Shown here in pieces: positions 33,185 to 35,287 of a DNA stretch of 64,000 bases (the stretch's first letter is position 1; every line of letters begins with the position of its first letter). Origin of the DNA: Candidatus Obscuribacteraceae bacterium (lineage in GTDB: Bacteria; Cyanobacteriota; Vampirovibrionia; Obscuribacterales; Obscuribacteraceae); the NCBI GenBank assembly GCA_044229845.1, contig JBGASG010000004.1:1-64000 (forward strand), in the 5' to 3' direction. The notes under the pieces were generated by a model. It did not search any database and was not told the origin of the DNA. It worked only from the letters and a program-made list of their open reading frames with translations. Made by a program: the position numbers and the translations under genes.

Positions 33185-33393
33185 CGATCGGCTTAGAAGC
33201 TGGCACCACTCGCGGTGCCACGCACGGTCGCGTCAGCATTAGTTGCCGATCACAATTACTGCGCGAGCCGCGCGCACGGCATCACATTTGATACCACTTC
33301 CTGCCCCAAAAACCGGCCGTCAACCCCTGTTGTCAGTTGCCGAAAAACACGACAGACGGATACGTTTCATCAACCCTTGTTAATCCGATCTGA

Positions 33394-33423
33394 TTGACTT
33401 CACTTTCTGGTCCTTACTAGGGT
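33394..33423 (+). promoter_or_regulatory. Putative sigma70 promoter for the structured leader/M28 transcript
   Basis: TTGACT-N18-TAGGGT. Confidence 0.4.
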
Positions 33424-33473
33424 GAAGGGTACACCTCATGTTTCTCAACCCAAAGAAAAACCAAACCACAGAC

Positions 33474-33680
33474 ACAAAAAAACCGTACTGACCACGCCAA
33501 TCTGGCTTCTGCGTTCAGAACTCTCGAGTAAATCGAGGAGCGGTTTTTGTTGGACGTTTCGGTGGGATCGTTTCCACGCTGCAAGGCTTCGCACTTAGCG
33601 ATGTTTGCGCAGCCTTTGTGGCGCGGTCAAGGGTTCTGAAGGTTTCAACAAGAACCGTTCGGCAATCAAGCCGGACACAG
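33474..33680 (+). ncRNA. Unclassified highly structured RNA leader (multi-pseudoknot candidate)
   Basis: Complementary pairs 33489-33499/33619-33629, 33514-33524/33630-33640, 33538-33554/33644-33660 plus local hairpins; G-U pairs favour the + strand. Confidence 0.55.
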
Positions 33681-33700
33681 CTATCACAAGGAGCACGACT

Positions 33701-34831
33701 ATGTTCCAGGCATCACTTGGTGTGAGCGACGCTTTCGCGTTCGTTCTCATCGTCCTTGCCGCGATTGCTTTTGTCGCGGCATTTCGTTTCCTCCGCCGGA
33801 CCACGCCCATCAGCAAGGTCCACCAGCGGCCCCACCTGCACCTCCACCCCGCCAAGAACTGCAAGTTCGACGAGGAGGAAGTGCGGCGCACCCGTCACCT
33901 GGCTACCCCGCCCATCGACACGAGCAACCTGCCCCCGGCAGATGCCCGCATCGTTGCGGCGATGGCCCAGATCACGAAGGCTGACGTCGAGCAAATGCTC
34001 CGAGAGTTCTCGGGCGAGGTCGACACGGTCGTTCGCGGTCAGACGGTGCGCATCCGTTCCCGCAACACCTTCGGCGGCGACATCATTCACGCACACAACA
34101 AGATCTTCGACTGGTACAAGGCGCTCGGCTTCGAGGTGGAGCTGCAGTCGTACAAGTACCGGGGCAAGACCCTGTACAACGTGATCGCCAAGAAGAAGGG
34201 TTCCAAGACCCCCGACAAGTGGCTCTTGCTCGGCGCCCACACCGACTCCACCGCCGGCGACACCGGTCGTGCAGAGCCGGTCGCTCCGGGCGCTGACGAC
34301 GATGGCTCCGGCACCGTCGGGCTGCTGCTCATGGCGAAGCGCATCGCCGAGCTGGATCTGGGCGTCTCCGTGATGTTCTGCCACTTCTCCGGTGAGGAGC
34401 AGGGGCTCTGGGGCAGCGCGGTGCACGCCGACAAGGTCGCGGCTGAGAAGCTGCAGATCGTCGGTCAGTTGCAGTTCGACATGATCGGCTACTGCAACAA
34501 GCCCGGCAACCGTCTCGACATCCACGACGACGTGGATCGCAACGGTAGCCACTCTCTCGTGGTTGCAGCTGTTCGTGCCGCCAAGCGGTACGCGCTCAAC
34601 CTCAAGGTCGTGGACACCCACAACCGTGCGGTGACGGGTCGCAGCGACCACGCCAGCTACCAGAATCACGGGTACAAGGCTGTGCTCTTCTCCGAGGAGT
34701 TCTCGGACGACGGGTTCAACCCCAACTACCACTCGACCGGTGACCGCGTTGCCTCGTGCAACCTGGACTTCATGGTCGAGGTGATCAAGCTCGGCATCGC
34801 CTGCATCGCCGACCTCGGCGACCTGCGGTAA
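33701..34831 (+). CDS. M28 family metallopeptidase (aminopeptidase-like), N-terminal TM/signal
   Basis: GAHTDS, PGADDDGSG, SGEEQGLWGS, DMIG, SDH, YHSTGD; AAGGAG RBS before ATG 33701. Confidence 0.92.
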   Translation: MFQASLGVSDAFAFVLIVLAAIAFVAAFRFLRRTTPISKVHQRPHLHLHPAKNCKFDEEEVRRTRHLATPPIDTSNLPPADARIVAAMAQITKADVEQMLREFSGEVDTVVRGQTVRIRSRNTFGGDIIHAHNKIFDWYKALGFEVELQSYKYRGKTLYNVIAKKKGSKTPDKWLLLGAHTDSTAGDTGRAEPVAPGADDDGSGTVGLLLMAKRIAELDLGVSVMFCHFSGEEQGLWGSAVHADKVAAEKLQIVGQLQFDMIGYCNKPGNRLDIHDDVDRNGSHSLVVAAVRAAKRYALNLKVVDTHNRAVTGRSDHASYQNHGYKAVLFSEEFSDDGFNPNYHSTGDRVASCNLDFMVEVIKLGIACIADLGDLR

Positions 34832-34921
34832 TCCGAAGACGCAGAACCTTATCGGGCAGCAGCAGCTGTCTGCTCAGGATCTGGAAGTGCTGCCTTCTGG
34901 GCAGTCCTTCGGTAACGCATT

Positions 34922-34990
34922 GGAATTTGCAGCCAGACAACGGAGGTGGCACAACGCCGCTCCCACTCTGGCTGCATTTTCCTTTGTCTA
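34922..34990 (+). terminator. Long terminal hairpin followed by T-rich tract
   Basis: TGCAGCCAGA (34928-34937) pairs with TCTGGCTGCA (34967-34976), inner GTGGC/GCCGC stem, then TTTTCCTTT. Confidence 0.65.
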
Positions 34991-35287
34991 TGTCTACTAT
35001 TTCTTTTAGTATTTACGAGTCGGCGAAATCAGCTAACGGTTTACGTGGCATGTATGAGTTGCTGGATCCGCACATTTTGCAGCCTCGCGTGCGCAGTTTG
35101 GGCACTAGAGGCTTCGTTTTAATGTCTAAGTGAGCACGGAAAGGCTCAAAATGTGCGGATCCAGCAATTTGGTTGATGGAAAGCGTTCGAGCGGCGACGT
35201 GCGCAATGGGTATGATGCGGCTAGAAAGTGCTCCCAACGGATTTCCCCGTGCCTTCGTCCGCCGATAAACCTCCTCGCAGCACACGC

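Follow-up and report, generated by a model that had tools for sequence, protein, structure and literature searches.

A single-gene M28 peptidase unit and the codon-defined gene class to which it may belong in Obscuribacterales

At positions 33,394–34,990 of the window (the whole stretch of 64,000 nucleotides analysed here, from a Candidatus Obscuribacteraceae bacterium), an M28 peptidase gene lies between a leader and a trailer that carry short complementary segments. Is such a gene cargo looped out of a structured RNA, or does it belong to something else? An earlier note on this DNA favored the first answer and proposed a cargo-carrying RNA cassette in the form of a stabilized, packaged, or mobilized mRNA; the version weighed here is a mobile, packaged, or circular RNA cassette with paired ends and interchangeable cargo ORFs.

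The M28 aminopeptidase ORF (33701–34831, + strand) encodes 376 amino acids, starting from an ATG at 33701 that lies behind an AAGGAG sequence, and its N-terminal segment is hydrophobic; as judged from its sequence, the peptidase is probably membrane-anchored. The assignment of the ORF to M28 in the earlier note holds: a Pfam search matched it to PF04389 at E=1e-31, above the cut-off, PDB 1AMP was matched at E=2e-23, and the metal-ligand motifs HxD, GADDD, EE, D, and H are conserved in an alignment. PF04389 and these motifs are shared with the leucyl aminopeptidase of the Vibrio/Aeromonas type (PDB 1AMP; LapA-like). What sets the window protein apart is its hydrophobic N-terminus, a CKFD region specific to the family, and a score far short of the cut-off of the LapA equivalog (72 vs. 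600 bits). The enzyme itself is an ordinary M28 member. In one orthologue (L020:1015–2139), the central segment with HxD and GADDD has moved to the C-terminus, through either rearrangement or misassembly.

The earlier note credited the gene with a candidate promoter and terminator of its own. A promoter is predicted at 33394–33423 (+ strand; −35 TTGACT at 33394–33399, 18-bp spacer, −10 TAGGGT at 33418–33423), with the transcription start inferred from sequence. Although a strict sigma-70 scan did not pick up this promoter, the pattern TTG(A/C)(C/T)T-N17/18-TAnnnT recurs 214–469 nt ahead of the start codon in most M28 orthologues, across many genera. The leader of ~270 nt (33430–33700, + strand) has a pyrimidine-rich start, an A/C-rich, G-poor stretch (about 33450–33490), a long hairpin domain predicted by folding (about 33537–33660), and the Shine-Dalgarno sequence AAGGAG at 33688–33693. 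Its folding is moderate (z=−2.3; 2 of 100 shuffles were as structured). The trailer of ~155 nt (34832–34985, + strand) consists of two hairpins, a terminal stem, and a U-rich tract running to about 34985; the terminal stem (34922–34937/34967–34982) and U-rich tract form a predicted intrinsic terminator. Trailer folding is strong (z=−7.3; none of 200 shuffles), which bears out the hairpin-dense 3′ flank described earlier. For the coding region, the fold z was −4.5 and −2.7 relative to dicodon shuffles.

RNA contigs from three studies matched 33447–34908 without differences and left the flanks almost uncovered, although the missing flank cover is weak evidence, since the runs were picked for containing 33200–35200. 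Contigs over the unit start at 33447, 33524, and 33610 and stop at 34859 and 34908, positions from which true ends cannot be read. A fourth run, of unrecorded kind, covered all 30 bins. Agreement of the RNA contigs with a single-gene transcript is a matter of consistency only.

Three features occur in the surroundings of the unit. The upstream beta-lactamase-family gene (PF00144; 32190–33184) is split into two ORFs in the window and is a single ORF in L067. The intergenic segment 33277–33298 contains a motif around CACATTTGATACCAC that has several near copies elsewhere in the genome; a sigma-54-like motif near 33277 was considered and dropped, as the expected spacing shows no excess. A palindromic repeat of ~110 nt with 40-nt arms, MITE- or REP-like, lies at 35059–35167, with about seven more copies on contigs C19, C5, C22, C1, and C20.

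The complementarities on which the cassette reading was built are real as letters, and both had been located correctly. Trailer segment 34838–34846, which starts 6 nt past the stop codon, complements leader segment 33507–33515 through eight Watson-Crick pairs and one G-U pair, and 34931–34937 complements 33501–33507. Folding of the whole 1561-nt unit places the 9-bp helix in the minimum-energy structure, with pair probabilities of 0.29–0.48, and roughly every second predicted fold contains it. The 7-bp helix has a probability of 0 in the same fold because its arm is taken up by the terminal stem. Without mismatches, the longest helix between leader and trailer measures 8 bp (10 bp with G-U pairs), and these lengths were reached by 127 and 236 of 300 dinucleotide shuffles, respectively; the duplex energy gave p=0.18. 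Eight of nine foreign trailers bound the window's leader at least as well as its own trailer did, and in a later comparison eight of 26 foreign trailers matched or beat it. Both short pairings at the window locus are thus at chance level, and the ends of long RNAs tend to come together anyway (PMC6193969).

A different result was obtained for orthologues in two other genera, denoted g36 and g55, in which the ORF is closed by long leader-trailer helices according to sequence comparison and folding, with covariation support in one of them. Co-folding of 44 orthologous loci, each with its own trailer and with nine foreign ones, placed the own trailer first in all seven loci of the g36 cluster, with leader-trailer energies of −15 to −29 kcal/mol. 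The g36 consensus (13 distinct rows) has 31 leader-trailer pairs, with 391 of 403 cells canonical; 15 pairs are invariant and four have two-sided changes. Of 2000 row permutations, none was as canonical as the real alignment, and the two-sided count was attained by 0.55%, statistics in which the rows are kin and not independent. Of the two genera, g36 is the one with compensatory changes. In six g55 loci, own pairing was −11 to −31 versus −6 to −10, through sequences other than those of g36; 13 other loci co-folded alongside these had no clear excess for their own trailers. The two genera are not sisters in a quick protein tree. Over 27 clusters the excess for the cognate trailer had p=0.01, and over the 23 orthologue clusters without g36 and g55, p=0.25. 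An ORF looped out by end pairing is therefore clear in g36 and g55 orthologues but not at the window locus. In topology, the 9-bp helix of the window is placed like the helices of g36 and g55: its arms lie behind an A/C-rich stretch and shortly past the stop codon. This shared placement is suggestive only.

In the g36 consensus fold, the Shine-Dalgarno sequence is unpaired and the end helix lies well upstream of it. Leaders of g36 (L013:1011–1263 and others) also have conserved segments with mutually exclusive pairings, CTCATTGACC/GGTCATGAG versus GAACGGTC/GACCGTTC, which may possibly constitute a switch. In most g55 loci (L207–L211), the M28 stop codon is followed by a small ORF that contains cysteines and is conserved, and no palindrome of the kind described below is present within 300 nt.

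The most distinctive property of the window gene is its codon usage. Third positions of the M28 ORF are extremely poor in A (A3 about 0.03; AAG 1.00, GAG 0.88, and CAG 0.91), and this A3 value is the second lowest among 4050 genes, as called by a simple in-house caller. The style is common to the 31 top-scoring genes, 30 of which are on contigs C19 and C21. These genes define a class, with thresholds chosen for each genome. A housekeeping style of highly expressed genes was ruled out as an explanation by GroEL, DnaK, EF-G, AtpA, and AtpD, which prefer GAA and often AAA and CAA, and have A3 values of 0.16–0.19. M28 orthologues remain low in A3 amid high-A3 neighbors, with the style relaxed in g17, g29, and g34.

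By Pfam, the class includes peptidases (M3, M16, M17, M48, S41, and TldD), enzymes of lipid and nucleoside salvage, a PrkA-DUF444-SpoVR set, and a factor of the sigma-70 type; no Pfam match was obtained for 30 of 53 and for 47 of 66 class genes. The PrkA, DUF444, and SpoVR set is found in class style from L189:17381 to L190:5217 (G061). The class sigma factor (L197:10867–11715) is RpoD-like and falls below all RpoD cut-offs, and 19 of its best 20 loci have A3 ≤0.14. Promoters with 18-bp spacing are enriched ahead of class genes in G061 (12/46 vs. 4/53) and G090 (10/46 vs. 4/78), and no enrichment was seen in G000 (1/51). The link between this sigma factor and these promoters is by association only.

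Leaders and trailers of class units are long and folded. Leaders of 29 M28 orthologues have a mean fold z of −2.4 (16 below −2), and their coding regions a mean of −1.6 (nine below −2). With a stricter shuffle, class and ordinary coding regions differed at p=0.13, 0.006, and 0.56 in three genomes, significant only in G061. End pairing was rejected as a class property, with values of −8.0 versus −7.8 kcal/mol for 26 G000 genes and p=0.62 for 31 G090 units. No private tRNA set was seen in class regions, there being one tRNA gene in 41 stretches. TAA and TTA are more strongly depleted in class genes of G000. Separately, GGCC is depleted about threefold in G000 coding regions of both classes (101 occurrences against 274 expected, and 187 against 567), which suggests restriction-site avoidance on the basis of sequence counts.

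Class units have a characteristic ending, composed of a hairpin, a U-tract, about 11 bp, and the palindrome TACTA-N7-TAGTA. In the window, the palindrome is at 34995–35011, ~10 bp behind the U-tract, and is a predicted protein-binding site. Neither this palindrome nor the codon class was noticed in the earlier note. The window's genome has eight palindromes with an N7 spacer and zero or one at each of ten other spacings. Summed over 36 family genomes, there are 196 at N7 and 19 at N8, and it is these spacer controls that were relied on, as a reversed-pattern control was as high as or above the bare palindrome in most genomes. A U-tract with palindrome occurs behind 46 of 75 orthologue trailers, compared with 9, 11, and 5 for three control patterns. 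With the class defined by codons, independently of the palindrome, the ending lies behind 68 of 220 class 3′ gaps and 12 of 1677 ordinary ones in three genomes (18/62, 35/71, and 15/87 vs. 7/1486, 2/60, and 3/131). The class fraction amounts to ~31%, many gaps being internal to operons. The ending is commonest at convergent junctions (41/76) and rare ahead of a class gene on the same strand (8/79), and in G061, G080, G036, and G118 two convergent units share one site at equal distance. In 30 aligned G061 sites, chosen by palindrome alone, the T-tract ends sharply 11 bp ahead of the palindrome. The seven middle bases are free and the spacing to the terminator is fixed; a fixed spacing between release element and site is what a roadblock terminator is expected to have.

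If the class is real, the palindrome could instead be a pair of back-to-back sigma-70 −10 elements (TACTAT), which would form a promoter firing in both directions, starting transcription anew past the terminator and directing antisense RNA into the unit. The left-arm variants TACTAT, TATTAT, TATGAT, and TACGAT all fit TAnnAT, and g55 retains the left arm alone, well kept, with a degenerate right arm. The conservation profile of −10 elements served as the reference here, and the palindrome has the reverse: at the 68 sites, T at the sixth base is conserved in just 41, against 61–62 for C3, T4, and A5. This profile disfavors a −10 element. Furthermore, no −35 is visible, and the preference for convergent junctions is against a promoter. 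Polymerase that remains on DNA after termination can re-initiate (PMC11364550), which lends the promoter explanation some plausibility. Overall, we consider it unlikely.

The palindromes are also not evenly spread over the chromosome. In three near-complete genomes, they cluster in sectors that make up 13–24% of the chromosome and that each contain dnaA: 41 of 46 matches lie within 2.42–3.06 Mb of G061, 32 of 39 within 1.50–3.12 Mb of G080, and 30 of 32 in 6.17–7.02 plus 0–0.58 Mb of the G103 main contig, which is contiguous only if the contig is circular. The N8 control pattern does not cluster (16 matches, one in a sector). Sampled sector stretches of the one-contig genome G061 interleave class and ordinary operons, with genes of A3 <0.12 in 12 of 14 stretches, and six G061 stretches outside the sector have no class operons. 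Likewise, the 400 kb around dnaA in G090 are bimodal in codon style. The M28 gene sits at the sector edge or 0.3–0.5 Mb outside. The positions of dnaA reject the idea that the sector is the terminus region. G000 gave no dnaA match, and a class-rich stretch of 20 kb in G000 was unmatched in G001, which suggests that genome bins tend to lose the dnaA sector.

Given this location, the palindrome might organize the origin region, as RacA ram sites and matS organize chromosomes, and merely occupy an untranscribed spot behind terminators. The clustering around dnaA fits such a role, as does the result of a search for canonical parS, which is absent from four of five genomes and has a single-mismatch match in the fifth. 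What disfavors a pure anchoring site is that the ending is class-specific, as ordinary genes of the same sector are nearly devoid of it (2/60 and 3/131), and that anchoring needs no fixed 11-bp spacing. We regard an origin-organizing role as decidedly unlikely.

The history of the gene bears on the remaining explanations. M28 homologues were detected at E≤1e-40 in 73 of the 103 genomes of the family, mostly in single copy. A quick tree was built from 69 proteins, leaving aside rows from metagenomes, those that were short or duplicated, and the rearranged L020. Each of the 11 genera represented by several rows forms a clade in it, and the tree has 23 changes, the minimum possible. Orthologues have about 50% protein identity and their leaders cannot be aligned between genera. 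In the only same-genus genome, G001, the M28 locus is almost identical, and L067 encodes a protein identical to that of the window. An alignment scan yielded 77 M28 loci, none above 62% identity; a single-protein scan of metagenome contigs found nothing. Of the 33 long loci with orthologues, a single one shares the upstream purK, purE, and tsaC, and a different upstream gene is common to g19, g21, and loci related to them. These comparisons indicate that the M28 gene is an old resident, and not a roaming cassette.

Class genes are richer in GC than their hosts (0.59–0.64 vs. 0.45–0.56), as would be expected of GC-rich genes acquired horizontally in ancient times, with ordinary long UTRs and with palindromes that are functionless scars of insertion or excision. 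Against such an origin, style and site persist behind orthologues of only ~50% identity whose leaders no longer align between genera, and the palindrome keeps a constant distance from the terminator, with its seven central bases left free to vary; we consider it very unlikely.

A second copy of the leader was not found in the window's genome. Among 60 relatives, the leader had a single full-length match, in G001, and two short weak matches elsewhere, and neither the window's own genome nor these relatives had the same flanks around different ORFs. An Rfam scan of the window gave no match at the gathering score, and a scan of four loci gave three sub-threshold matches (E≤1) to unrelated families, at chance level. 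No M28 relative was found in viral contigs by a single-protein scan, and no circular end-to-start joint touches the unit in RNA contigs from three runs, contigs being a form of data that drops rare forms. Group I/II introns and HEARO/OMEGA RNAs were excluded, as their covariance models are unmatched and the loop ORF is a peptidase rather than a nuclease, reverse transcriptase, or maturase. These elements and integron cassettes resemble the M28 unit in having an ORF between structured flanks, and differ in that the unit has no Rfam match, no nuclease, reverse transcriptase, or integrase cargo, its own promoter, both orientations, and vertical descent. A mobilized or packaged cassette is hardly tenable: the unit is self-contained, its upstream neighbors vary among most genera, and true end helices exist in g36 and g55, but its flanks surround no other cargo, viral and RNA contigs gave neither relatives nor joints, Rfam gave no match, and the gene is mostly single-copy with a protein tree congruent with the genera.

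We read the M28 locus as a vertically inherited single-gene transcription unit that belongs to a second class of genes found throughout this family of Obscuribacterales. The comparisons show its vertical descent and its place in the class, the architecture and spacing of class units and their position near dnaA, and the end helices of two genera; the mechanism is inferred, and we give the explanation as a whole a probability of roughly one half. The class is best read as a regulon specific to one stage, in which mRNAs would be stabilized and a protein bound behind the terminator would set a boundary. Class units would be transcribed, from promoters with 18-bp spacers, by an alternative sigma factor that is RpoD-like and itself has the class style, and this transcription would be confined to one life stage, devoted to the digestion and salvage of macromolecules or to dormancy. 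Class mRNAs would be selected for long life through folded leaders and trailers and, more weakly, folded coding regions. The stabilized mRNA is the part of the earlier proposal that fits best, given the folding of trailer, leader, and coding region, with the long life of the message being presumed. The M28 mRNA of g36 and g55 would be further clamped by its leader-trailer helix with the ribosome-binding site left free, and the 9-bp helix of the window would be a weak version of this clamp at most. At the other end, a putative dimeric DNA-binding protein on the palindrome would stand directly in front of RNA polymerase as it terminates, serving as roadblock or boundary, and would insulate class units from their neighbors.

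A stronger form of this reading is possible, although we hold it to be doubtful. The class would then be a second, separately coded expression system, interspersed among ordinary genes around the origin of replication, with its own sigma factor, its own synonymous code, storage mRNAs (some of them loops closed by end helices), and a DNA-binding protein at TACTA-N7-TAGTA that either enforces termination or insulates it, a bacterial counterpart of factor-marked terminators, serving a predatory or dormant stage that has gone unrecognized.

Parts of this picture have counterparts in known systems. Stage regulons driven by alternative sigma factors underlie sporulation and the growth-phase programs of predators; the class similarly has its own RpoD-like sigma factor, degradative genes, and a PrkA-DUF444-SpoVR operon. 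We know of no stage regulon marked by a distinct codon style and by a palindrome at a set place behind the terminators. Termination assisted by roadblocks occurs with Reb1 and TTF-I of RNA polymerase I, mTERF, and LacI and CcpA roadblocks, where a protein-binding site lies a short, constant distance beyond the release element, as is predicted for the class. What would differ in the class is that a bacterial system spans a whole chromosome sector, with a putative binding protein. A roadblock to sliding polymerase is described in PMC11364550. For the end helices, the nearest likeness is to type I toxin-antitoxin mRNAs, such as aapA3/IsoA3 and hok/Sok, in which a long-distance 5′-3′ interaction pairs the ends around the ORF and the 3′ end hides the Shine-Dalgarno sequence of a short toxin ORF (PMC6733600). 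The g36 and g55 mRNAs resemble these fold-back mRNAs in end pairing and are not members: the g36 helix leaves the Shine-Dalgarno sequence free, and the ORF encodes an enzyme of roughly 400 amino acids. Covariation supports the g36 helix as an instance, beyond toxin-antitoxin systems, of end pairing in the mRNA of a bacterial enzyme.

No description of the class or of the terminator motif was found in the literature searched, in which coverage of subscription papers is thin, and the second gene class in Obscuribacterales is apparently undescribed. What deserves to be pursued is the class together with the palindrome behind its terminators, the end pairing at the window locus being unproven. The palindrome, at its fixed distance behind terminators, offers a direct bait for a new factor that acts in termination or as a boundary. 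Little is known of how Obscuribacterales, non-photosynthetic relatives of cyanobacteria, live, and a gene class that can be read from sequence may provide a parts list for a hidden life stage.
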